A stretch of DNA of 64,000 nucleotides, taken from positions 23,323 to 87,322 of IMG/VR virus record IMGVR_UViG_650377940_000003. One strand, 5' to 3'. Below are positions 3,001 through 45,626 of the stretch, piece by piece (within the stretch, counting starts at the first letter, position 1; each line of letters begins with the position of its first letter). Both the position numbers and the translations under genes were made by a program. Origin of the DNA: a virus. Taxonomy: Duplodnaviria; Heunggongvirae; Uroviricota; Caudoviricetes. A model generated the notes under the pieces. It had not been told where the DNA came from. It searched no databases and saw only the letters and a program-made list of their open reading frames with translations.

Positions 3001-4936
3001 TACTAGATGATTTTCCAGCATTTTTAGAAGATGAGCCGAATCCATTCAACTGATTTGTTAATGCTTGCCCACCCTTTAAAGCGGCATTCATATTGGTGTA
3101 CAGCAAAGAAAGCTGAGTATTTGTGCGATTCGTGATTTCCTCTAGTTTTGCAGGATCTACGCCGCGTTCGCCGGCCTTCTCTACTTCATTTGCAAACTCC
3201 TGAGCCGCACTGTATGTCGCAGTAGCCGCAGTAGCATTTTTCAAGGCAGGAAGAAGATTTTCCAGAGCAGTCTTTTCAGCCTCTGTTTTTTCTTTTAAAT
3301 CATCAGTGCTTTCAGCCGTATCATCGGCAGTAAGGTTTGCGACCTCATGTTGTGCGTTAGACAGAATTGTTGCCGCAGCTTCTGCGTATTCAGCAGCAAG
3401 TAACTCGGCATAACTCTGTTTATTTATCTGAAGCCTACCATTAACAAGCTCAAGGCAATTCAGATACTCGGTGTTCATCGTCAGTAAAGACTGAAGAGAA
3501 TCGAGACTCATGTAGCCATACTGATTGTACTCTTCCATTGCACTGGTAGAAGCTTTATACGCAGACTGGATTTCATCCATTTTGGAAGAAATATCCTCCA
3601 TCTTCTGTGCGCCAGCAGCCAATGCGTCAACACCATTTGCAGAAGACTGAGCTACAATACCAACTTGAACAAGTGCTTGGATAAACGCATTTACACCGTT
3701 TGTGTCAGCAGAGAAGTCCATGTCGGTCAAAGCTTTACGAAGATTTGTGAGAGCTTGCGCTTGCTCGTCTGATAATCCTTCGTTTGTGCCCCATAAGAGC
3801 TCGTTTAACTTACTTGCATCAAACCCATCAATGGTATTTTTTAGAGTTTCGATTGCAGAATTGACCTTATCGAAACTATAGCTTACGTCCATACCATTGC
3901 TTTTGCCGTCGCTCCAAAAGTCAATAGCTTGAAGCTTTCTACGAGCGTTTACATTCTCGTTAACAGCATCCGTTGAGTCGTTGTAAGAATCTACATCATC
4001 ACGGAGAGCAGATTGCTCATCCATTAAATACTTATAAACGGTATTGTACGCACCGCCTGCCGCTCTCTGTGCTTCTGTTGTGTTTTGTACAATATAATCC
4101 AGTGCTCGTCCAAGTTCAGAATAATACTTTGCGATAGAATCTGGATCATTCAAGTCCTTCGCACCAAAACTACCATTCTTATTAAAAACATCAATACCAG
4201 CATCTTTTAACTCGTTCATAATACCACGATTGGTATTGGCGGAAACAGAACTAAAGAAATGTGAACGATTGTTGTCTTTTGCGGTTTTAACTAGCTTATT
4301 GCTTTGAGCATCCTTGGATTGAATCAACTTCGATTCGGAAGCTTTGAGCTGTTCTTCTGTGATATCCTTCAGCAAACCAAGCTGTTCTTCATATTTTCCA
4401 TTTTGAAGATCAAGCTGATTTGCTTTATTTTCGTCAAGAGTGCCTTGTTCTTTTGCAAGAGCCAAAAGTTCCTCTTGGATATCCGTTGCTTGGTCAAAAT
4501 CTTCTGTACTCCAACCAGACTTGTCGCCAAGTTCTTCGTAGGCATCAACTAGATCCTTTAAAGAGGAAGTGGCATTTTTAGCTGCGTCAGCTTCCTCTTT
4601 AGTCTTTGTAGCCGCAGTATCGATTCGCTGTGCGTAATCAGCTATGGCGGAAACGACTCCGTTTATTGCCATTCCAATTAACGCACCAACAGCCATCGAC
4701 AAAGCGAGATTTAGTGCTTTTGCCGCGAATGTTGCTGCCCTCATCGAGAGAGTCAAACCGTCAGTTGAGGCTTTACTTCTTATTGAATATTTGATAAAAT
4801 CAAAGAAAGAAGTCCCAGCTCCACGCTCTGCTACATCTAGCGATAAAAATTCCCTGTAAAGATTTCGTATTTTTGTTATTAGGCCAGTAATATGATTATT
4901 GTCATCAACGTCAAAAACGTTCATGAAAGATAATAT
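1..4936 (-). CDS. Tail tape measure protein, exon 2 (runs off the window start; spliced protein >2680 aa)
   Basis: Missing from the ORF track because no stop lies in the window. Manual translation of sampled stretches is open: ILSFMNVFDVDDNN... at the start, repeats like AMKEYNQYGYISAD / AMEEYNQYGYMSLD, and the C-terminal motif YNVDEVGPEMLVRQPASGRYTYLETGDGVIPADIT. Confidence 0.85.
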   Translation of the reverse strand, partial: MLSFMNVFDVDDNNHITGLITKIRNLYREFLSLDVAERGAGTSFFDFIKYSIRSKASTDGLTLSMRAATFAAKALNLALSMAVGALIGMAINGVVSAIADYAQRIDTAATKTKEEADAAKNATSSLKDLVDAYEELGDKSGWSTEDFDQATDIQEELLALAKEQGTLDENKANQLDLQNGKYEEQLGLLKDITEEQLKASESKLIQSKDAQSNKLVKTAKDNNRSHFFSSVSANTNRGIMNELKDAGIDVFNKNGSFGAKDLNDPDSIAKYYSELGRALDYIVQNTTEAQRAAGGAYNTVYKYLMDEQSALRDDVDSYNDSTDAVNENVNARRKLQAIDFWSDGKSNGMDVSYSFDKVNSAIETLKNTIDGFDASKLNELLWGTNEGLSDEQAQALTNLRKALTDMDFSADTNGVNAFIQALVQVGIVAQSSANGVDALAAGAQKMEDISSKMDEIQSAYKASTSAMEEYNQYGYMSLDSLQSLLTMNTEYLNCLELVNGRLQINKQSYAELLAAEYAEAAATILSNAQHEVANLTADDTAESTDDLKEKTEAEKTALENLLPALKNATAATATYSAAQEFANEVEKAGERGVDPAKLEEITNRTNTQLSLLYTNMNAALKGGQALTNQLNGFGSSSKNAGKSSSTTSKSVADLSSAFDTLTKAMKEYNQYGYISADTMKSLIGVDDKFTACLTEQNGKLELNTAKFRTFVRAQLEEANAANDGGKSAGEMKKILDWLNSSVDSETISFEQLTDAIKGYGTAMDEAKEKTDAIKSAFSGLYDIQQKIKNSQFGVGDLDATESKIESILQLSKFFGDNKDLMDNLVDKNGNINLNTEAFKKATLDELDKRIKAANETGGAAATALANSLSSDKANIESGKISVSDYLVGLGTDLERVNTELDKYQTNWSTLKDAMDEWNTTGQLTQDTMQKLQELPEEFSNLLTYDEDGNAKIDVKALRQSYVDKLSAFAKEFEGSPIGIQVQAMIDDVREPTHDEYVELAKKTATYQKVLAQYTKKMSAIDSNKDLSEDEALKQKAEVQKELDDALEKALLEVQETDAQVTTKLKKHWDGVEKVIEEFKSALSDAKDVLSSFLSLLSGLNDKSNNDLKIWGDAMGKVIDKRIEALNKQKEALEENNEATERAIELSKAQDALARAQQQRTTRVYTENGYEWQANAEDVRTAREDLADKQREWNNKDAEKAIDDQIKKYNEFKDKLSEVMDDIGKSWKDYQKELEYTAQIQKMSLSQMEGSLDGYHNKIIASLNTGSAITGIQNLITNLESLINTLTKVNNLYSAIKTGEYKDLGTKGLWNTIKGFFNKGGEEATGESANVVENFFNVLRSKVQTSGNGLVETFSGIWKKIKAGAQSLFNGSGEGGGIVSTVVDGFKAVGNAVSKSKIGSTLIKGAGKLVTGAGGLIKGAVSAIGAAGASAIPVVGGLAAAAGLGIYSGVKGIKHQKEIWSNKEDGFGKKAIKSVASFFWDISPIGGIVNLCKDIFGKSKETAENTKDTANSSSETAENTKKATGITNLTVNATQGTIAEENKPEEKKQSAWDKFWGSKFWFWNWGKKASGDKKIKHDGTYNVDEVGPEMLVRQPASGRYTYLETGDGVIPADITSRLFEMGGNPDKWFSDQLAKNSSASMIQSRS

Positions 4937-4956
4937 CATTTTTGAGGAGAATAAAT

Positions 4957-5370
4957 ATGGATAAATATGTACGCTACTGCCCGTTATGTGACAAGTATTA
5001 TCCCCAAAATCAAATGCTGTGCGCATTTTGCTTTAGAGATGTCATATTATCGCCTAAGTGGAATAGTATGAGCCAGCAAAAGAAAATCAATTGGAAGTTT
5101 GAGCATCTGCCGCAGGTTGACATTTCAACACTTAGCGAAGATTCGCTCAAAAAAATGCAAGATAAAGCCAACGCCTTTGATGCTCAATATAGAGCCGAAT
5201 TAGAGGAGAAAGAACATCCGAAATACGTTCCTACCTGCCCAACCTGTCATTCGCCTGATATTGAAAAGATTAGCGGGACCAGTAAGGTTGTTGATGCAGT
5301 AGTCTGGGGCATTTGGTCCAAAAAGGCAGGGAAGACATTTAAATGCCGGAATTGCGGTTACGAATGGTAA
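4957..5370 (+). CDS. Zinc-ribbon (CxxC) hypothetical protein, antisense cargo inside TMP intron
   Basis: ATG at 4957 after GAGGAG; CPLC..CAFC at the N-terminus and CPTC..CRNC at the C-terminus. Confidence 0.75.
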   Translation: MDKYVRYCPLCDKYYPQNQMLCAFCFRDVILSPKWNSMSQQKKINWKFEHLPQVDISTLSEDSLKKMQDKANAFDAQYRAELEEKEHPKYVPTCPTCHSPDIEKISGTSKVVDAVVWGIWSKKAGKTFKCRNCGYEW

Positions 5371-5391
5371 GGTGTATCTAACTAAAATGAC

Positions 5392-5424
5392 ATAAATAAA
5401 GCCCCTGCTAAAATCTAGCAAGGG
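5392..5424. terminator. Terminator-like hairpin between convergent cargo genes
   Basis: CCCCTGCTA-aaatc-TAGCAAGGG, followed by a U-rich tail on the minus strand. Confidence 0.6.
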
Positions 5425-5443
5425 TGTGTTTACTATATTCAAT

Positions 5444-6061
5444 TTACCGCAAACACCATCTAGCAAGATGAGAATTCTTGTTATCGTACAGAAATTCAAA
5501 ACGCTTAACGTGGCACATCGGAACACACATTACTGTGCTTATAGGATGCCTTGATGCTTCGTCCATATCTTTTCCATCTGGCGTAGTTGCAGAAGAATGA
5601 TGGCTTAAAGTGATGTATTCATCATCAACGGTGTCAATACGTCCAAGAATATATGTTCCATCATCCAAATAAAGAAGAACATTAGTTTGCCCTTCTGCAT
5701 CAATATGTCTTGTCCAAATATTATCGGCAGTATCTACACCAAAATGTTTTGACGCCTTCCAGCGAACCCATACACAATTCTTTAATTTAAAATATACAAT
5801 TGCTGACAGGATACCAACAACAGAGTAGACCACAACAATAGGAAAACCATTGAGTCCAATGTGTGCTTTCGATAAAAACGTGTCGATATAGTCAACGATA
5901 TATTTTATTACAAAACCGATTGATACGCTAAGTGCTAAGAAACTTTGCGTTTCGATTTTCTTTAATGCCAATTTAGTGTATAGCGAAACACATAACACGC
6001 CAGGCACAAAGACACTAAAAAGCATAGTAACATTATTTATTAGTTTTATCAGTTCTGTCAT
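5444..6061 (-). CDS. Membrane protein (DUF6338-like), intron cargo
   Basis: ATG at 6061 after GGAGG; three hydrophobic segments then a soluble beta-rich domain (LLYLDDGTYILGRIDTVDDEYITL). Family assignment is from memory. Confidence 0.6.
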   Translation of the reverse strand: MTELIKLINNVTMLFSVFVPGVLCVSLYTKLALKKIETQSFLALSVSIGFVIKYIVDYIDTFLSKAHIGLNGFPIVVVYSVVGILSAIVYFKLKNCVWVRWKASKHFGVDTADNIWTRHIDAEGQTNVLLYLDDGTYILGRIDTVDDEYITLSHHSSATTPDGKDMDEASRHPISTVMCVPMCHVKRFEFLYDNKNSHLARWCLR

Positions 6062-6230
6062 TTGCACCTCCAGTAGTTTTATTGTTATTCCGTGTTGCAC
6101 TTCTGTCTCTAAAATAAGAAATTAAAACTGATGTGTCTGCTTTTGGCTGATTCGGAGAATAGGTGAAATTACCGTCTCTTTGATAAGTTGAAATTTCATA
6201 ATCCGGCACATGCTTCTTATTGTTTTCCAT
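6033..6230 (-). CDS. Small hypothetical protein overlapping the membrane gene, intron cargo
   Basis: AAGGAG RBS; upstream TTGCTT-N17-TACACT promoter-like sequence. Confidence 0.55.
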   Translation of the reverse strand: MENNKKHVPDYEISTYQRDGNFTYSPNQPKADTSVLISYFRDRSATRNNNKTTGGANDRTDKTNK

Positions 6231-6289
6231 GATTCAACACTCCTTTTATAAGAGTGTATCACAGGATGTCGTAAAAAGCAACGCAAATT

Positions 6290-6333
6290 AAAAACGCCCG
6301 GCCTCCCAGCAGTAGGGAAGTCGGGCTTGTTTT
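6290..6333. terminator. Bidirectional intrinsic terminator
   Basis: GCCCGGCCTCCC-agcagta-GGGAAGTCGGGC, flanked by AAAAA and TTGTTTT. Confidence 0.75.
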
Positions 6334-6344
6334 ATGATGATGCC

Positions 6345-6677
6345 TTACTTCAGTTTTTCCAGAATCTCGTCTGCGCTCACACCGCTAGACAGCAACTTCT
6401 TGAGCACATCTTCGGCTTCGGCCTTCTTTGCAGCTTCCGCAACCTTTGCGTCGGCATCAGCCTTTTTCTTTTCGAGCTTGGTGATCTCTTTGTTGAGTTT
6501 TTTCAATTCTGCTTCTTTTGCTTTACGCTGGGCGTTCAGTGTAGCGATATCATCACTAATAGTTGCAATCTCCTGAGCAATAGATTCTGCGGCAGTATTC
6601 TTTTCAGCGATCTGTGCCGCGTAATCAACGCCGTCGAGAACCTTTGCTTTATTCTTGCTTCCTTTAGGACGTGCCAT
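6345..6677 (-). CDS. Small coiled-coil protein with AT-hook-like N-terminus, intron cargo
   Basis: MARPKGSKNK start then K/A/E-rich heptads; GGAGG RBS; own promoter TTGCTT(6749-6744)-N17-TATAAT(6726-6721). Confidence 0.75.
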   Translation of the reverse strand: MARPKGSKNKAKVLDGVDYAAQIAEKNTAAESIAQEIATISDDIATLNAQRKAKEAELKKLNKEITKLEKKKADADAKVAEAAKKAEAEDVLKKLLSSGVSADEILEKLK

Positions 6678-6786
6678 AATAAAATACCTCCGTATATTTT
6701 GAATACGCGATTGTACTTATATTATAGCCAGAAAATTTCAGAAAAGCAACCTCTTTTTATGTATTATAAATTACATTATAGAAATA

Positions 6787-6816
6787 TTGACATGATATGA
6801 CAGACGGGTGTATAAT
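6787..6816 (+). promoter_or_regulatory. SigA-type promoter of the putative toxin mRNA
   Basis: TTGACA-N18-TATAAT with TG just upstream of the -10. Confidence 0.75.
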
Positions 6817-6963
6817 AATGGAGCAATCAGGAGTTCCACATCGAACTTGTCCAACCATAGATGTAAAAAATAGGCGGTCACCCTCCCAGTAGCCGGAAGG
6901 CAAGAAGGAGCGTGTATTTCTTTAACTGCCTTCCGGCAATATTGTCGGAAGGAGGATGTTGCC

Positions 6964-7089
6964 ATGAATTTTGACATTCAGACTGTCTACTATGTCGCAA
7001 TGCTGTTCTTCGGTTTTGCTGGCTTTGTTAAGACTGTTCTTGAGATTTTCAAGATGCTACATCATCACAGCGAGAGCCGTGATAAGTAA
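6964..7089 (+). CDS. Putative type I toxin-antitoxin membrane toxin (41 aa)
   Basis: MNFDIQTVYYVAMLFFGFAGFVKTVLEIFKMLHHHSESRDK: one TM helix plus a charged tail; GGAGG RBS; ~140-nt structured 5' UTR. Not in the ORF track. Confidence 0.7.
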   Translation: MNFDIQTVYYVAMLFFGFAGFVKTVLEIFKMLHHHSESRDK

Positions 7090-7200
7090 AAGAGCCGCCT
7101 ATGTCCAGTAGGCAGCTCTTCATTGGGATTGAAATTGTCCAGATTTTAATTCCATTTGTTTGATGCTAACCGAGGGAACCGTCTATTGGAACTCTTGGTT
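7088..7200 (-). ncRNA. Putative antisense antitoxin sRNA (~115 nt)
   Basis: Consensus promoter TTGACA(7235-7230)-N17-TATAAT(7212-7207); ends at hairpin AAGAGCTGCCTA..TAGGCGGCTCTT-UUUU (7120-7088); convergent with the toxin gene. Confidence 0.7.
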
Positions 7201-7733
7201 GCTTTTATTATACACTTTTTAGAGTACGCTGTCAACGAACAACAGTGTACTTTTTCTTTTTATTCAATTATTCAATCATTTTTCTCTTTCTTATATCGCG
7301 CCAGAGAATAGCGCGTCTCCTCATTTCCACCTACTTCTTTAAGTCGTCTGGTTACGTCTGAGGTGGACTTCTGAACTTTCGTCCAGAACTGACTATCCTT
7401 CCAGTGGTTGCTCACTGACCCTTTTTAGTCGATGAACCTTCCACCCTCCTACATTATATAATAGGGGAGTGAATCGGCTGCTGACCGCCCATTATAAACG
7501 CTACTTAGCACTCGATTATTACCATATTTTGACAATACGATAAAACCGAGCTTTTATCTCAGCATATAGCATCCATATCCTTGTTTCTATCTTTCGATTC
7601 CTACATTATATAAATATAACAATAGGCGATATGGCTCTTAGGGTTTCCCAGCACTCTAGGGGCTATTTTATTTTTACATGGTGCCGCATCCTATATTTTA
7701 TACGCAACAAATATAAGAGGGCATATTAACTTT

Positions 7734-10700
7734 ACCCGCACCATTTTTGAGTTTTCCGCTCATCTGCATTACAGACAACACACCAGAGATGGCAGCTGTC
7801 AAAGTGGGTAATGCACCAGCAAATTTTACAGCGTTATCTGCACCGTCAACAAAAACCGTTGCAAGATCTACGAAAAACTTCGGAATATCTGACTTCATCA
7901 AGTCCGTACTGAACTTCTGGAATGCAGAATCAAGCTGATTAAGCTTCGCCTGCAATGAATCCATGTACGTCTGGTTCTCACGCATTGCGCTTCCGCTAGA
8001 ATTAAGAGCCTGTTTCATAGCATCTTCTGCAACGCTAAAATTATTCAGCAGGGCAGATGTACTCTGACCTCCACGCTTACCGGCGATCAATTCTGTAATA
8101 TTTGCCTGAGTGGTATCAGAAAGGTCTTTCCAAACCTCAGAAAGCTCCTTCATAATCTGATAGGTTGATTTGAAGGTATTATCATCCTTCATGATATCAA
8201 CCCCAGCAAGTTGCTTCAACTCAGAGCGAAGCTCAGATACGGAACTCGCCATTCCATCCGTAGCAATACCGGCATTTTCTGCATCAGTCTTTGAAGCACG
8301 AAGGTACATACTCAAAGTTTTTAGGTAAGTGCCACTCGCTTCGCTGTCCTGAAGTACGCCATTTACAGCGGCTGCAAGGCTAAGAGTCTCTTGATATGTA
8401 TTTCCGGCGGCAGACATCGCAGCAGAACTTTTCTGCATGATAATTCCGAGATCATTCATACTGACAGGCTCTGTATTCGCGATTTGGTTCATGCAGTCCA
8501 GAAGATGTTCTGCGTCGTCTGCAACCAGACCAAAGCCTTGCATTGTAGAAATCAGGTAAGAGGAGGCAGTTGTTGCGTTATCAATCTGATCTCCAACGTT
8601 AGCCATAAGCGCAGACACACGAGCAAGCTCTTCAGAGTCTTTGTCCGTATATCCGAGTCGTTTCCAGTCAGCAGTACTACTTACAAGGTCAGAAATATTC
8701 GCACCAAGCTCACGAGCATTTGTTGCAGTTCTGTCAAGATATTCATTCATCTCGTCGCCAGTCATTTTACTGACCTTTTTGAGTTCAGTTACAGCCGTAT
8801 CAAGCTCAAGAACGTTATCATAAACCTCTCGCAGACCTTGTTTGACCATTGCAACGCCAGCCATAGCGATAGCAGTCTGAAAGTGCTCTTTGAATAGACG
8901 AGACAGTTTTTGACCAAGAGTTTCAGTTTCAAGGCCAGCTTGGTGGCAAGCATTTTGGAATTTGCTGACTTTCATTTGAGCTTCTTCAAAAGAATAACTA
9001 CCATTTTTAATCGCATCAAAAAGCTCATTATATTCTGCTTCAAACTTTGAACCTTCAAATCCATGAAGTGTTTCTTTATACTGATACAGAGTACGCATAA
9101 GATTTTCTATCTTATCTGTATCAGTATTTGCTGTCTTTGTCTGACGGCTTTGCCCCAAAGCATCGTCAATATGTTTTCTCACCTGAACAAGTAAATCGTC
9201 AACTTGACTAAGTGTTGCTTTAAACTCTGTTGGACCTTTATTTTCATCCAACTGTTTCATAGCAGCATCTAGCTCTGCCAATACTTGTTGCCCAGTTTTG
9301 CCATCATCCAACACGCCTGTGTTAAATTGCCCTAAAGCAACACTATTTTTTCTTGTGAATTCCGTACTACTTAATCTATTTTGAATAGTGTTATAGGCAG
9401 CTTGCTTTGAACGGACTTGACCGTGCTTCTGTTCGGCTTCTTTCTGCAAATCCTCTTCTGATTTCAAAGCTTGCTCAATTTGAATTTTTACCTTTAGCCA
9501 CTCGTCAACAATATCACTTACTCGTTGTTTGTACGTAGCAGATTGAGTATTCATTCCCTTTAAAGAATTAAGTTGGCTTTCAAGACTACCATCAAGAGAA
9601 TTCGTCTTACTATCGCCAATAAGAACACTGTCAAAACTGTGGTTTCCGGCCTGCTCTAATTCTAATTCTTTTTTACGGATTTCAGTTAATGTTCTTCTCG
9701 CAGTGGATTCAAGGTCTTTGTATCCATCCGTGTAAACAGACATGGACGCTTTTGCACTAATAAAAGCATCATCTAAGTCTTTTACGCCTTTCTTGTATGC
9801 ATCTGAACTATGGTCTGAATCCAACTTTTTAGACGCATCAATAATACCGTCAATGGAATCTCTCAATTCTTGCGAAGCAGTGTCGCTGTCCTTAATGGAT
9901 TCCTTCCATTTCAGCGCCTGTTCCGTCATGCTCTTGACATGATTTTCAGCTTTCTTCTGAGCTTCATCAAAAGTACTCATCTGGCGAGTGGCGTCAGCCC
10001 ATGTATCAGCGACAACCTTTAATTGATTAACATAATCTTGCGTTCCGGTTTCAAGCGTGTTAAGAATATCAATCTGCTTTTGAACATCCGCAAGAGAAGA
10101 TTTTACATCAGAAGCTCCAGAAAAATTCTTATATTTATTATTGGCGTCAGCAAGATTATTTAAGTACGTATTAGTTTGATCGCTTTGTGATTTTTTTAAA
10201 GCCTTTAACGCTCCATCATTCGCGGCATTCTTTAACCCTTGAAGCCGAGCCTCAAGCCTAGAAATACTATTAGTTGTTGCTCGTTCAATTTCGGAAATTT
10301 TGCTAAACTCTTCCGTCGGAAGAATGTTTACAAGTTCTGTACGCAGCCGACCAGCTTCATTTCTAACAGCTTGAAGTTGACGTAAAACCTCTTCTAACTC
10401 TGGCTGATTCTTACCAGACGATTCAAGTTTGAGAGCATCCTTATAAAGAGAACCTTTTTCTTGAACCCTTCGGTAAAAAGCATCTAGTTTTTGTTTCGCT
10501 TCATTAGTGTTTAAGTTTACTTTGACTTCGGCTTTCGCATTTTTCGCGCCAGACTGTGCTTTATCAACAGCCTTTTTTACAGCAGCATCAATATTAGATT
10601 CATCTATTTTCAAAGTGAGTTTTGGAGACTCTACCTTTTTAATGATTCGCTTCAATGCGGCATTAACATTGCCGATGGTTGCGCCTTCGTTTACACCAAA

Positions 10701-11527: not shown

Positions 11528-12517
11528 TCAAATCTCAAACCGATCCTTTGCGGACTGAATCTTTGTCGTATCCTTTTTGATGTAATACTTGTTGGTCACA
11601 TCCGTGCCAGCATGGTTGAGCAGGGAAGAGACATCTTCCAGACTCATACCCGCATTCTTCAGCAGGGTAGCACCACTATGCCGGAAATCATGCGGATGCA
11701 GCGTAGGCTCATCAATCATCTCACCTATCTTCTTACACCAGTCCCCGGCAGTGCTTGAGGTAATCGGCATCCATACACCATTGATTTTCGTACCAACAAA
11801 CACATAGCCGCCATCCTCAATATCATGCTCAGTACGGTATTCCTTCAGCTCTTTCAAAAGCTCAGAAACCTCCTTGCTGAACATCAGATCAACAATTTTT
11901 CCTTCCTTCTCCAGAACGTCATGCACCATACGGTTCTCATAATCGATAGACTTCCAGAGTGTATTCCGCACAGCGTTAACACGAGCCATCGTGGATAGCG
12001 AGAACAGTGCGTACAGACGCAGTGTCATCGCATTATCCTTCATGTGAACTGTGGTCGCAGATTCAACCAGAGTGTTCAGCTTCTCTCGCATCAATTTAAC
12101 CTCATCCGGCGTAAGGTATGTCTGCTTCACAACAGCCACATCCTTGGTCGGTCGGTCAATGAACTCCATCGGATTCTCTTTGATGATTTTTTTCTTGCGA
12201 AGATACCGATATAGCGCAGAAATCGTGCTCATGCGCCGCTTCATACGAGCAGAGTTGTTTCCGTGCTTCTTACAGTAGAACAAAAATTCCTCAATATCCT
12301 CTTCTTCAAGTTCCGTCACAGGAGCATTACCCTGATTATCCAGAACATAAATCATCCACTGCTTGAAATCCGATTCATAATTGTAAACAGTAGACGGGCT
12401 GAGGTCGCGGATGCCCATATCAGTCTCATATCTATCCCAGTATTTCAAAGACACTGAATTTACGTTCTTGAACTTCTCAGCATCCCATAACTTCAGCGGT
12501 TTACTTCTTGTAGCCAT
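11528..12517 (-). CDS. Tyrosine recombinase (XerC/D-like) in the tail module
   Basis: SAM-like core-binding N-terminal part; catalytic R (TMAR), HDFR, LNH and Y (TNKYY) present. Confidence 0.9.
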   Translation of the reverse strand: MATRSKPLKLWDAEKFKNVNSVSLKYWDRYETDMGIRDLSPSTVYNYESDFKQWMIYVLDNQGNAPVTELEEEDIEEFLFYCKKHGNNSARMKRRMSTISALYRYLRKKKIIKENPMEFIDRPTKDVAVVKQTYLTPDEVKLMREKLNTLVESATTVHMKDNAMTLRLYALFSLSTMARVNAVRNTLWKSIDYENRMVHDVLEKEGKIVDLMFSKEVSELLKELKEYRTEHDIEDGGYVFVGTKINGVWMPITSSTAGDWCKKIGEMIDEPTLHPHDFRHSGATLLKNAGMSLEDVSSLLNHAGTDVTNKYYIKKDTTKIQSAKDRFEI

Positions 12518-18507: not shown

Positions 18508-20094
18508 CCAAAATTTTTAAGAAAAATGTTTATCTAAAATATTTTCCACATTATCAAAATCCGTGTAGGGAATTCTGATAAGTTTTATTCCGTTATTTTT
18601 ACAATAACTTGTTTTCAAAGAATCTTTCTTTTGCTGATTTTTATATGTAGCAATAGAATCAGACTCGGTTATACTTTTACAAAACCTAACTGGTATAAAA
18701 TGTTGCTGTCCATCATATTCAATGCAAGTATTTTGCGACGGAATATAAAAATCAAAAGGAAGCTGTCTCTCGTTTTTGCAATCTTTAAAGCGATATTCGC
18801 GAATATATGCAATTCCTTTTTTGTCAAGATATTCACATATCTTTTCTTCACCATGTGAGGACCAACACTTAGGACACCCGTGCCCACCGAGTATTGAGTT
18901 GACTGCGGTGTTCCATTCGTAACCGCACTTCTTGCAACGAAAGTTGGCGTGAGATAAAATAGTTTTATACCCGTTCAAATACTCTACACTTGGAGAAGAT
19001 TCCTTTATTCGTTCAATTATTTCAGACTCCATAATATGTGCTTTACCTGCACATTTTGGACAGCCGGAATTTTTATTATTAAGTATCGTATCAGGAATTG
19101 CGGTCCAATGGTAACCGCAAACATCACATGCAAAATCCACTTTCACAGCAACACGGACATATTTTGAAAGAACATGAATAGTAGGAAATCGTTCACGCAT
19201 TTCTTTTAAGAATTCATCTTCCGTTCGTCTGTTTGCAATCCGTCGATAACATTCTGGACACCCATGTCCATCAAGCAATGTATGAGGTATGCCATTCCAC
19301 TCATGCCCATCAAGTTTACAACGACAATGCACTCTCGAATTGTTTGTTGTGTATTCAGATAACAACTCAATATTAGGATTTACTTCAAACAGCTCCGTGG
19401 AAAATTGTATTGGCGACTTTCTTTTTTCTGCTCCACGCTTAGAGGCAACACATGCTTGACACCCACGATTATCAAGCAACATTCTTGCCTGTACTTCACG
19501 TACATCACCGCATACTTTACATTTCCTGGTAATCTTTTTTCGAAGACCATTATATTCGGATAAAATTTCAAAATTTGGGTTTACATCAAACACTTCTTTT
19601 TTGAAGTCTTCTGTCGTTCTCATTGGTGTCATCCATGCTACCTCCTTTCTTGCAAAATAAAAGCCAGACATTCTACACAACATCTGGTCAAATTAAATAT
19701 TAGATAAACATTATATCGGACGCTACTCCGTTCTTGTTGCATCTAGCAACCTCGTACTCTCATACGAGTGAAGACTATATCTTCACCCAGTAAAAACACT
19801 GGGGCACACTACTTTGGATGCCAAACACTTGCATCCTAACCGCTCCCACGCGGATAGTCGTTGAACCTTTTCCTTTTCGGAACTTGGCTGCTGATTGCCC
19901 ATTATTTCAGCGTTTAGGATTTAACCTTGCGCCATCTACAATTTTCTTTCTACTTTCGTAACCGTCCATCTAGGCATATTTCATCCTTCTGCTTTGGTAA
20001 TTGTAGTTTTAGGGTTTTCCAGCAATTCAATGTGTATTTGTTATCGTGACTTACATCACGACTGGACTATATTACGTAAATTTACATAAATTTA
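18508..20094 (-). ncRNA. Group I intron in major capsid gene (1587 nt) with endonuclease ORF
   Basis: P AAUUGCUGGAAAACCC (~20012-20027), Q AAUCAGCAGCC (~19886-19896), R UUCAACGACUA (~19856-19866), S AAGAUAUAGUC (19773-19783). U before the 5' site; terminal G at 18508; in-frame join GAT|AAA. Confidence 0.92.
18517..19632 (-). CDS. Intron-encoded homing endonuclease (Zn-ribbon repeats plus EDxHD/vsr-like PD-(D/E)XK domain)
   Basis: Repeated CxxC...GCPxC units; C-terminal FDFYIPSQNTCIEYDGQQH; likely ATG at 19632 after AGGAGG. Confidence 0.85.
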   Translation of the reverse strand: MTPMRTTEDFKKEVFDVNPNFEILSEYNGLRKKITRKCKVCGDVREVQARMLLDNRGCQACVASKRGAEKRKSPIQFSTELFEVNPNIELLSEYTTNNSRVHCRCKLDGHEWNGIPHTLLDGHGCPECYRRIANRRTEDEFLKEMRERFPTIHVLSKYVRVAVKVDFACDVCGYHWTAIPDTILNNKNSGCPKCAGKAHIMESEIIERIKESSPSVEYLNGYKTILSHANFRCKKCGYEWNTAVNSILGGHGCPKCWSSHGEEKICEYLDKKGIAYIREYRFKDCKNERQLPFDFYIPSQNTCIEYDGQQHFIPVRFCKSITESDSIATYKNQQKKDSLKTSYCKNNGIKLIRIPYTDFDNVENILDKHFS

Positions 20095-20916
20095 ATCCGG
20101 GATCAGCAGAGAACCATCACCCAGCTTCTTGGCAGAGCTAATACCAGTGATAGCAACACCATCGTAAGTCTTAACCAGACCATAACGGTTAAACTCATCC
20201 TTAGCTGCGTCAGACAGATACTCAGCGTAACCGGTCATACGACGCATCTTAGCACAATACTTCATCAGGCTGACAGTGAAGGGATTACCACCATCTGCGT
20301 ACTCATTCAGATATAGAGCCAGAGCGTCCATATCCTGCATAGTGGGCTCCTTACCCTGTACATCAATCTTCTGCTCACCACCAGTGATAGCGTCATCAAC
20401 CATACTGAAGATGTCATAGAACATCTGGTTCTTCAGAGCCTCAGTCATAAAGGTGGTCAGAGTTGCCACACTCTTCCAAGCATTACGTCTTACTTCCACA
20501 TAGCTAAGATCAGCCTCGATCTGCTTATTACGCCAGACGGGCTTAATGGTCTCGTAGTGCAGGTAAGACTTCGGCACGTTGCCGCCCTTAGCTGCATCAT
20601 AAGCTTTCAGAGTGTTCTTAACAGTACGACCTGCCTCGTAGTCATCAAACTCACCAACATTACCACGTTCAAACATGGAGTCCAGCAGCTCATCAGGTGC
20701 ACCATACAGCTCATCAGTCACAGTGCGGTTAACAAACTGAGCAATCTCCTTGTTGGGGTCGCCCTTATCAATCAGCTCCTCAACATGAGCGCCAACAACC
20801 TCAGCAATTTCCTTGTCCTCGGCATCCATAGCGCGATTGTACTGAGTCTTCTCAGCAACTTCATAAACACGACCAGGCTGCTTCATCAGCTCGGCCACTT
20901 CAATATCCAGTGCCAT
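20095..20916 (-). CDS. Major capsid protein, exon 1
   Basis: 274 codons ending ...GDGSLLIPD at GAU|; follows the scaffold and decoration genes; HK97-like size once spliced (331 aa). Confidence 0.85.
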
Positions 20917-29914: not shown

Positions 29915-30006
29915 TGGCGCGGTCTCAGAGATTCGAACTCTGGCATCGGATTTACCGACCTAACGGTTTTCAAGACCGTTCTCTTCAACCACTTGAGTAA
30001 GACCGC
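29915..30006 (-). tRNA. tRNA-Ser (TGA)
   Basis: Full cloverleaf with long variable arm, TTCGAAT T-loop and CCA end. Confidence 0.95.
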
Positions 30007-30209
30007 ACAACAAAAACAAGCATCCATCAAGCATCCGAGCTAGTTGAATTGTTCTCGTGTCGATAAAACGCTTGTTTTAGACTTTTAAAGCTTCGCATTA
30101 ACGTAGCGAAACACGAATAGCTTATCATTTCGTTCCACAGAACTACTTTGCATCCAACCATCCGTAGATTGAGTTGGTCTAGGCGGTAGCAGCTATTGAC
30201 CGCACAACT

Positions 30210-30285
30210 TGGAGCCACTTGTAGGAATCAAACCTACGACATATGTGGTACGAACACATTATTCTATCTACTGAATTAAAGTGGC
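30210..30285 (-). tRNA. tRNA-Thr (CGT)
   Basis: 76 nt; acceptor GCCACTT/AAGTGGC; loop TTCGTAC; CCA end. Confidence 0.85.
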
Positions 30286-30286
30286 A

Positions 30287-30362
30287 TGGAGCCAATGACA
30301 GGACTTAAACCTGCGATATCGGGAGTACAAAACCCGCGTTCTATCAACTGAACTACACTGGC
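30287..30362 (-). tRNA. tRNA-Thr (TGT)
   Basis: 76 nt; acceptor GCCAGTG/CATTGGC; loop TTTGTAC; CCA end. Confidence 0.85.
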
Positions 30363-42804: not shown

Positions 42805-42871
42805 CGGTTTAACCGCTTGACATTTACGGTTTAACCGACTATAATAAAACCACGCTCAAGGGCAACAGCCC
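42805..42871 (+). promoter_or_regulatory. Consensus early promoter 1 with two CGGTTTAACCG operators
   Basis: TTGACA 42817-42822, N17, TATAAT 42840-42845; palindromes at 42805-42815 and 42827-42837. Confidence 0.85.
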
Positions 42872-43423: not shown

Positions 43424-43609
43424 GTGTTCAAAGAAAAGCTCAAAGCCGTTCTTTTTGTAGCTCTTTTTACTATCGGTTTCATCCTTATTACCGCTGGTAT
43501 GCTGGTTAGCTTTTGCGGATTAGCATACATGGGATATGCGGTTGTTTTAACCGTCTACGGCGGTTGTTCACTTCTTGCAACAGCTCTTGTTGAGGACATT
43601 CTCAAGTAA
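43424..43609 (+). CDS. Small membrane protein
   Basis: Two hydrophobic helices; GAGGTG RBS. Confidence 0.55.
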   Translation: MFKEKLKAVLFVALFTIGFILITAGMLVSFCGLAYMGYAVVLTVYGGCSLLATALVEDILK

Positions 43610-44670: not shown

Positions 44671-45342
44671 TTGAAATCCTATCAAAATACGATGGGAGAA
44701 GTGCGTCAGAACACTTCTGGACACTCTATCATCTACAACGGAACAGAAGTCAAAGAGCTTGATCTTTACGGCACATTTGACGGCGTTGTGTTTGTCAGTC
44801 GTCCGTTTATCGCAATGGAAACAGGCTTTATGCCTATGTACGTCAAAACATCTATGGGATGGACTTCTATCCATCCTTGCAAGATTGTTGACTTCCTCAA
44901 AGAAGCATACAAGGCAAGAAGTATTTCCCTTTATGACTGGAATGCCTATCAGCAGAGCAAGAAAGAAAAGCGTCTTGCAATGGAAAAGGTCAAACAAAAG
45001 CAGAGTGAAACGGCTTTTCTCAGAGCGTCACAAGCTAATGCAGAAGGTTCTTTGCGTTACCATAAGAGCAAGAAACGTCTTGATGACCGCTATAATGAAG
45101 TGGGTAAACCAGTTCAGAAAAAGCGTTCTCAGCGTGTTGTATTTGGCTCTAGTGAATACATCACAGTTTCCGGCTGGATCTACGGCAGAGAAGTCTTGAT
45201 GAATAATCATAGCTTCCGCATGGATGAAAGAATGTCGTATTATATGGACGGCACTGGATGCTGTGCCCGTGATTTCGATAACAGAGATATGCGTCCTTTG
45301 AATGACGTGTTTCCTGTGAAATCTGGCAAGAAAGCAAGGTGA
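44671..45342 (+). CDS. Hypothetical protein
   Basis: 223 aa; GAGGTG RBS. Confidence 0.6.
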   Translation: MKSYQNTMGEVRQNTSGHSIIYNGTEVKELDLYGTFDGVVFVSRPFIAMETGFMPMYVKTSMGWTSIHPCKIVDFLKEAYKARSISLYDWNAYQQSKKEKRLAMEKVKQKQSETAFLRASQANAEGSLRYHKSKKRLDDRYNEVGKPVQKKRSQRVVFGSSEYITVSGWIYGREVLMNNHSFRMDERMSYYMDGTGCCARDFDNRDMRPLNDVFPVKSGKKAR

Positions 45343-45353
45343 TAACTTTGGGT

Positions 45354-45382
45354 TTGACAGCAATTCGTCAGAATGATATAAT
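45354..45382 (+). promoter_or_regulatory. SigA-type promoter
   Basis: TTGACA-N17-TATAAT. Confidence 0.8.
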
Positions 45383-45410
45383 TGTACCATCAAGAAAAGG
45401 CGGTGCAATT

Positions 45411-45626
45411 ATGGCAAATCGTGATTATAAAAAAGAGTATCAGCAAAGCAAAGATAAGGCAAAACTGATTGGCCTGAAAGTTGATGCTGATTTCTTTGAT
45501 GCTTTTACCGCTAAGGCAGAGCTGAACGGAACAAACAAAAATGCGATTTTGAAAGCCTGTGCGGAAGCGTACACTTATGGAAATCTCATCATTGATGAGA
45601 ATGGAAAACCTCAGATTGTTGGCTAA
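45411..45626 (+). CDS. Ribbon-helix-helix-like DNA-binding protein
   Basis: KLIGLKVDADFFDAFTAKAELNGTNKNAILK pattern. Confidence 0.6.
   Translation: MANRDYKKEYQQSKDKAKLIGLKVDADFFDAFTAKAELNGTNKNAILKACAEAYTYGNLIIDENGKPQIVG

Follow-up and report, generated by a model that had tools for sequence, protein, structure and literature searches.

A candidate type I toxin–antitoxin cassette carried as optional cargo of a probable group I intron in a gut-phage tape-measure gene

[quoted passage not shown] Faecalibacterium is a major human gut commensal, and its phages are little studied. Whether two facing promoters in a gut provirus enclose a complete system of this type, and whether the locus lies inside an intron as a first-pass annotation had proposed, are the questions addressed here. 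The window, that is, the whole 64-kb stretch of DNA that was analysed, is part of a 151-kb provirus record. For comparison, 84 related loci were collected by back-translated scans of gut viral contigs, gut metagenomes, and one metagenome-assembled genome (MAG). Sequence comparison upheld the locus as it had been annotated, with facing promoters, a 41-aa gene, and a structured toxin mRNA. The data give good support to a candidate type I TA cassette with a new peptide family, carried as optional cargo of a probable intron (Table 1).

Table 1. Coordinates of the features of the candidate cassette and its surroundings in the window
Feature	Position	Strand	Description
Toxin promoter	6787–6816	+	TTGACA-N18-TATAAT, 12/12 match
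Antisense promoter	7235–7207	−	TTGACA-N17-TATAAT, 12/12 match
41-aa peptide gene, candidate toxin	6964–7089	+	ORF; hydrophobic helix and polar tail
Closing helix, 5' strands	6822–6837 and 6869–6878	+	Small conserved hairpin between them
Closing helix, 3' strand	7178–7203, then UUUUAU to 7208	+	Predicted 3' end of the toxin mRNA
CCCUCCC anti-Shine-Dalgarno-like element	6881–6887	+	Invariant in alignment A3
Three-part switch	6892–6955	+	Segment B pairs with A or C
3' UTR stem-loop, loop UCCAG	7123–7155	+	Strand-specific
Two-strand-readable hairpin	7089–7119		Predicted antisense terminator on −; no U-run on +
Predicted antisense (antitoxin) RNA	7202–7084	−	From promoter position and fold; ~120 nt
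Optional cassette extent	6734–7225		Indel in comparison with sister phages lacking the cassette
Probable group I intron of the tape-measure gene	4937–7733	−	Core 7733–7371; long 3' cargo region

Promoters, peptide gene, and distribution

The convergent promoters had been annotated as near-consensus; both are in fact perfect. Four perfect sigma-70 promoters occur in the 64-kb window, compared with 0.08 expected from its composition. The other two lie at 42817–42845 (+), with a two-helix membrane ORF of 61 aa (43424–43609) approximately 600 bp further downstream, and at 45354–45382 (+), directly upstream of a 95-aa ORF (45339–45626). Both cassette promoters were perfect in 81 of the 84 related loci. 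The spacer sequences diverged between clades, whereas the hexamers were kept; the antisense spacer was wholly different in L048 and altered in L043 and L044. Spacer length did not vary across the relatives: the toxin promoter always had 18 nt and the antisense promoter the optimal 17 nt. This spacing would fit an antisense promoter that is the stronger of the two. Transcription would start near 6822–6823 on the toxin strand and near 7202–7200 on the antisense strand.

The single-transmembrane peptide of 41 aa proposed in the first-pass annotation is present as an ORF, is predicted to form a single helix, and is under purifying selection. An AGGAGG motif (6950–6955) is located 8 nt upstream of its ATG. 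The hydrophobic stretch covers residues 7–30, and the polar, His-rich C-terminal tail (HHHSESRDK) is His/Ser-rich rather than lysine-rich, with a net charge near +1. AlphaFold2 predicted one continuous helix from residue 2 to residue 40 (pLDDT 87). The peptide thus has the size (<60 aa) and the hydrophobic membrane helix of a type I toxin. Among the relatives, dN/dS was 0.06–0.58, indicating purifying selection, and the variable sites were distributed over the three codon positions as 15/6/22, with the third position varying most.

The peptide ORF was intact in 83 of 84 relatives and truncated only in L084. In this locus (L084:3900–4230), the 5' half of the toxin ORF, the leader, and the promoter have been swapped for unrelated sequence, and the final 25 codons remain together with an intact 3' UTR and antisense promoter, which makes it a natural toxin-less, antitoxin-retaining copy. 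Frameshifted copies of the peptide gene were also found (P0004–P0006), and inactivated copies in which the antisense part is kept occur occasionally.

Searches of Pfam and NCBIfam returned zero matches to the peptide at E ≤ 10, and PADLOC assigned it to no family. Profiles of known type I toxins in Pfam and NCBIfam (Fst/Ldr, TxpA/BsrG, Hok, TisB, Ibs, ShoB, and Hol_Tox) gave no significant match. Only two leads were obtained, phrog_23825 (E 0.007), a family of unknown function, and an Atlas cluster scoring 0.82 in which 23% of the members are Hol_Tox, and both were within the range of chance. Few relatives of the 41-aa peptide turned up among 5.8 billion proteins, and HMMER, run exhaustively against 1.84 billion representatives, yielded only 3 clusters. 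The sole match in a named genome was an uncultured Faecalibacterium MAG, and the cassette was found in 1 of 91 Faecalibacterium species genomes. A DNA-motif scan for remoter cassettes produced a single match, L107, attributable to chance, and blastn against the phage GenBank collection produced zero matches. On the sequences searched, the cassette is restricted to one gut-phage lineage.

Predicted structure of the toxin mRNA and the antisense RNA

The predicted toxin mRNA (6822–7208, plus strand) is approximately 385 nt long. Its minimum free energy was −150.4 kcal/mol, compared with −102.3 ± 5.1 kcal/mol for shuffled sequences (z −9.5). RNAalifold on an alignment of 39 distinct sequences gave 93 pairs, 15 of them with compensatory changes, and this covariation derives mostly from a few clade splits (4–5 lineages) rather than from many independent events. 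The two ends of the mRNA are joined by a closing helix of 26 bp, which was 99.1% paired with 9 compensated pairs in 35 distinct sequences, whereas slid-partner controls were 35–51% paired with 0–2 compensated pairs.

Two pairs of complementary blocks had been noted in the first-pass annotation. The first, CAGGAGTTCCA (6828–6838) with TGGAACTCTTG (7187–7197), is real and belongs to the 26-bp helix. For the second, TAGGCGG (6871–7) and CCGCCTA (7094–7100) are indeed complementary, but they were assigned the wrong partners. Their pairing was rejected because covariation places AAUAGGCGGU (6869–6878) with ACCGUCUAUU (7178–7187), and CCGCCTA forms the 5' arm of the 7089–7119 hairpin. Directly 3' of the closing helix is UUUUAU, a U-run complementary to the −10 box from which the antisense RNA would be transcribed. 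Since the closing helix is followed by this U-run, the toxin mRNA must reach at least 7203 and would overlap the antisense RNA by approximately 120 nt.

Ahead of the ribosome-binding site, the switch consists of segments A, GCCGGAAGGCA (6892–6902), B, TGCCTTCCGGC (6927–6937), and C, GUCGGAAGGAGG (6944–6955), the last of which includes the Shine-Dalgarno (SD) sequence. A:B was 95.3% paired, and B:C was 99.0% paired with 2 compensated pairs. In the L025 clade, one position was altered in A, B, and C together (G>A, C>U, and G>A). The hairpin between A and B that had been annotated before the ribosome-binding site therefore holds, at 95% pairing, as one state of a three-part switch. In constrained folds, the CCCUCCC element paired with the SD in some clades only. 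An SR4-like model, in which antisense binding frees CCCUCC to shut the ribosome site, was supported by these folds in the window, L038, and L043, but not in L025, L028, and L048; the effect of antisense binding on SD access was inconsistent between clades. SD sequestration and 5'–3' closure, the marks of a structured, self-limiting toxin mRNA, were both found.

The clades differ in sequence at the 7123–7155 stem-loop, yet its predicted energy on the toxin strand was −12 to −18 kcal/mol in each of them. On the antisense strand it reached only −2 to −6 kcal/mol, because G.U pairs turn into A.C mismatches there. This strand asymmetry indicates that selection acts on the plus-strand RNA. In the predicted folds, it leaves an open region of the antisense RNA facing the target loop of the stem-loop.

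The predicted antisense RNA (fold z −3.0) spans the entire toxin 3' UTR and ends at the toxin stop codon. Its predicted fold begins with a stem-loop at the 5' end, leaves the middle open, and ends with a GC-rich hairpin of 13 bp, after which comes UUUUACUU. The arms of the 7089–7119 hairpin were nearly invariant in 39 sequences. The U-tract of the antisense terminator is interrupted, the L025 clade has an A.C mismatch in the terminator stem, and a simple terminator scan flagged the 3' end of neither RNA. Rfam returned only RNAI, at chance level (18.9 bits, E 0.87), and no type I antitoxin or toxin-leader family. We infer both transcripts and their ends from promoter positions and predicted folds.

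Probable intron setting and mobility of the cassette

The proposal that the cassette is nested in an intron is probably correct, as the cassette is flanked by a predicted group I core on one side and, on the other, by a 3' splice site (4937/4936) that the relatives support. A local Rfam search matched Intron_gpI at 7743–7370 (−) with 26.9 bits and E 2e-4, against a gathering score of 50. The match starts at the end of a 1,055-aa tape-measure ORF (PF10145, 82.9 bits). Among the relatives, the intron core was 95–98% identical and the end of exon 1 was 75–100% identical. The 5' splice site is GGU/AAAG, with a U.G pair in P1, and the base preceding the 3' splice site is G in all relatives. The start of exon 2, AUAUUA (or GUAUUA), pairs as P10 with the guide UAAUAU beside the U.G pair, and one clade preserves P10 through a G.U change. 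Exon ligation would be in frame, with phase 0 on both sides. On the minus strand, an open frame with tape-measure character continues from 4936 for >1,650 aa and lacks a start codon in every relative, and TAG immediately precedes exon 2 in L091–L095. The features by which the splice sites were judged (U.G pair, terminal G, P10, and in-frame ligation) were thus all found.

A shorter intron, ending at 7371 and followed by an exon at 7370–7272, was considered and rejected. No P10 complementarity exists there, whereas the distal site has the terminal G and P10 in all relatives; the startless tape-measure-like frame begins at 4936; and the stretch after the core acts as RNA, with a compensatory change from CGCGC/GCGCG to UGCGC/GCGCA in L091. 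The long intron was accepted as probable because of the startless frame, the constant G, P10, and the post-core RNA hairpins. The cassette then sits in the 3' cargo region, beside self-promoted genes of unknown function. The tape-measure transcript crosses it in the antitoxin sense and must read through the antisense terminator. No intron-less tape-measure homologue was found among database tape-measure ORFs, 120 of 120 of which end within the intron, and a genome search found no contiguous one.

Several further observations concern this region. The 135 nt past the Rfam core (7236–7370, −) contain conserved hairpins, with the compensatory change in L091. An in-frame ORF running from the 5' exon into this stretch would end the protein after 32 codons; it looks coincidental, and would matter if splicing used the proximal site. 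No Rfam group I core was detected in L048. The approximately 366 nt that follow its tape-measure ORF (L048:2283–2650, −) show no similarity to the intron core of the window, and the ORF reaches GGGU at the equivalent place, which may represent a different intron or type of interruption. Elsewhere in the window are a second, strong group I intron (19751–20095, −; Rfam 79.8 bits), three tRNA genes (29918–30362, −), and a 329-aa tyrosine-recombinase-like ORF (11528–12517, −). The last lies upstream of the tape-measure gene, at a distance of approximately 660 bp that includes a 177-aa ORF; this is an unusual location among tail genes.

With the downstream part of the tape-measure gene as the anchor, 19 sister loci were fetched. 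Nine of the 19 lacked the cassette, yet had the intron core and a 110-aa coiled-coil gene (6677–6345 in the window). The boundaries of the cassette fall within the promoter spacer of this gene. TA-less phages have TTCGTTGACT-N17-TATAAT at the 110-aa gene. In TA-plus phages, the −35 box of the antisense promoter uses the TTCGTTGAC context of that TA-less promoter, and TTCTGGCTATAAT is retained as the −10 box of the 110-aa gene. The promoter of the 110-aa gene itself reads TTGACT-N17-TATAAT in TA-less phages and TTGCTT-N17-TATAAT in TA-plus phages (window 6715–6760 (−), L087, L091, and L101). In L048, the most diverged relative, the peptide is 56% identical, the cassette lies on the opposite side of the 110-aa gene, and homology to the window runs exactly from −35 box to −35 box. 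Its absence from nine of the 19 sisters and its different site in L048 indicate that the cassette is a discrete, relocatable unit.

Proposed mode of action and relation to known systems

We read the locus, with a probability of about 0.7, as a ~450-bp type I TA-like cassette with the −35 boxes of two convergent sigma-A promoters as its limits. This reading is supported by the conserved promoters, the selected peptide, the closed, SD-sequestering, and covarying mRNA, the predicted cis-antisense RNA, and the presence or absence of the cassette as a unit. The plus promoter would produce an mRNA of ~385 nt for the 41-aa membrane-helix peptide. Closure by 26 bp between the first 57 nt and the last 30 nt would shield both ends from exonucleases, and translation would be low with the SD held in a helix whose upstream segment can switch to a decoy partner. 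The minus promoter would produce an antisense RNA of ~120 nt that is complementary to the toxin 3' UTR at every position, the 3' strand of the closing helix included. Pairing may begin where the unstructured middle of the antisense RNA meets the strand-specific hairpin of the 3' UTR, and the duplex could spread to ~120 bp and open the closing helix. The opened toxin mRNA would be exposed to RNase III and other nucleases. If the prophage is lost, or another phage shuts off the host, and the cassette is no longer transcribed, the short RNA would be expected to decay first, and the stable toxin mRNA could then be translated and the cell harmed. The toxicity of the peptide, the involvement of nucleases, and the physiological role, either prophage stabilization or abortive defence, are inferred.

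The peptide could instead be a non-toxic small membrane protein acting in superinfection exclusion or lysis timing and tuned by the antisense RNA, so that the locus would be a regulated moron and not an addiction or suicide module. It has no homology to any toxin family, its tail is not rich in lysine as is typical of type I toxins in clostridia (PMC7699646), and the neighbouring cargo genes likewise resemble self-promoted morons. However, a closed mRNA, SD sequestration, a better-spaced antisense promoter, and 3' overlap together form a type I signature (PMC6562991) that would be unusual for ordinary small membrane proteins, and inactivated copies retain the antisense part (L084 and the frameshifted P0004–P0006). 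We therefore consider a non-toxic peptide unlikely. It is very unlikely that the minus promoter mainly serves the downstream 110-aa gene, with the antisense RNA as a leader or terminated by-product. The same TTCGTTGAC −35 context does drive that gene directly in TA-less sisters, and in the window the gene has only a weak −35 box of its own (TTGCTT). But a conserved 13-bp GC-rich hairpin and U-tract lie between the promoter and the gene, and in L048, where the cassette is downstream of a 110-aa gene with its own full promoter, the antisense promoter is still perfect. Such a role would also be compatible with the TA reading, as read-through transcripts would carry the antitoxin sequence too. A chance coincidence of promoters, ORF, and complementarities in an AT-rich intergenic stretch with no function, to which only the small size of the ORF lends itself, is almost certainly wrong. 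It is refuted by the hexamers kept among diverging spacers, the purifying selection, the 9 compensated pairs, and the z of −9.5.

Beyond the TA reading itself, the cassette and the intron might be functionally coupled, through lytic antitoxin supply, pre-mRNA cleavage in the lysogen, and addiction that holds the intron allele; we regard this as distinctly unlikely. The tape-measure pre-mRNA and the excised intron would carry the cassette in the antitoxin sense, so that late lytic transcription could supply antitoxin sequence. In the lysogen, the abundant and stable toxin mRNA, antisense to the intron, could mark leaky tape-measure pre-mRNA, and cleavage of the duplex would fall between the core and the 3' splice site. 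If coupling were true, the intron would be a safe harbour for host-expressed accessory genes in an essential gene and a switch point joining lysogeny to tail production, and an addiction module rather than a homing endonuclease would prevent the population from losing the intron allele that bears the cargo, or the prophage.

Sequence comparison was enough to delineate a complete candidate system, comprising promoters, RNA architecture, and a probable recognition hairpin. This system forms an optional unit among the cargo of a probable group I intron that interrupts an essential tail gene. An intron with self-promoted accessory genes and not a homing endonuclease is a layout that was not found in the literature searched. 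Likewise, we found no paper on a type I module as group I intron cargo, or on a type I module in Faecalibacterium phages. If functional, the cassette could serve as a compact, portable stabilization or counter-selection module for the genetics of Faecalibacterium and related anaerobes.

The likeness of the layout to txpA/RatA and bsrG/SR4 that the first-pass annotation had drawn was borne out in the 3' overlap, the sequestered SD, and the prophage location. All features of a 3'-overlapping Firmicutes-style type I layout that sequence can test were present or, for the antisense RNA and its terminator, predicted, and we regard this layout as supported. In those systems, an antisense RNA and the mRNA of a small hydrophobic peptide are transcribed towards each other and pair at their 3' ends (PMC6562991). 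Both are from Bacillus subtilis, bsrG/SR4 on SPbeta and txpA/RatA on the skin element, and they resemble the present locus in having a structured, SD-sequestered mRNA on a prophage or its remnant; by analogy, duplex-triggered decay would be the expected mechanism, as proposed here (PMC6562991). Unlike in these systems, the entire 3' UTR is covered and the extreme ends of the mRNA are paired here, the U-run of the toxin mRNA and the −10 box of the antisense promoter share the same base pairs, a clostridial gut anaerobe serves as the host, and the cassette probably lies within an intron. There is also no peptide or RNA sequence similarity to them.

The modules of the Clostridioides difficile prophages phiCD630-1/2, such as CD0977.1/RCd11, are likewise convergent, reside on Clostridia prophages, and use sigma-A promoters (PMC7699646). 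They share AGGAGG at 7–8 nt upstream of the start codon and a hydrophobic N-terminal region ahead of a polar tail (PMC7699646), and prophage maintenance has been shown for them (PMC7699646). The candidate toxin described here is unrelated to theirs, and its tail is His/Ser/acidic and not lysine-rich. In hok/sok of plasmid R1, long-range 5'–3' pairing keeps the full-length toxin mRNA closed and stable, similar to the closure predicted here. However, Sok binds the 5' leader and acts via the mok frame, whereas the antisense RNA predicted here pairs with the 3' UTR, and the toxin mRNA shows no evident leader ORF. In prophages of the Bacillus cereus group, tape-measure genes are known to be interrupted by group I introns, TMP-IVS1–3 (PMC2504315). 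There, as here, P1 and P10 set the splice sites (PMC2504315). TMP-IVS1–3 are ORF-less or bear homing endonucleases (PMC2504315), whereas the probable intron described here carries at least 2.4 kb of self-promoted genes on both strands, including the candidate TA cassette.
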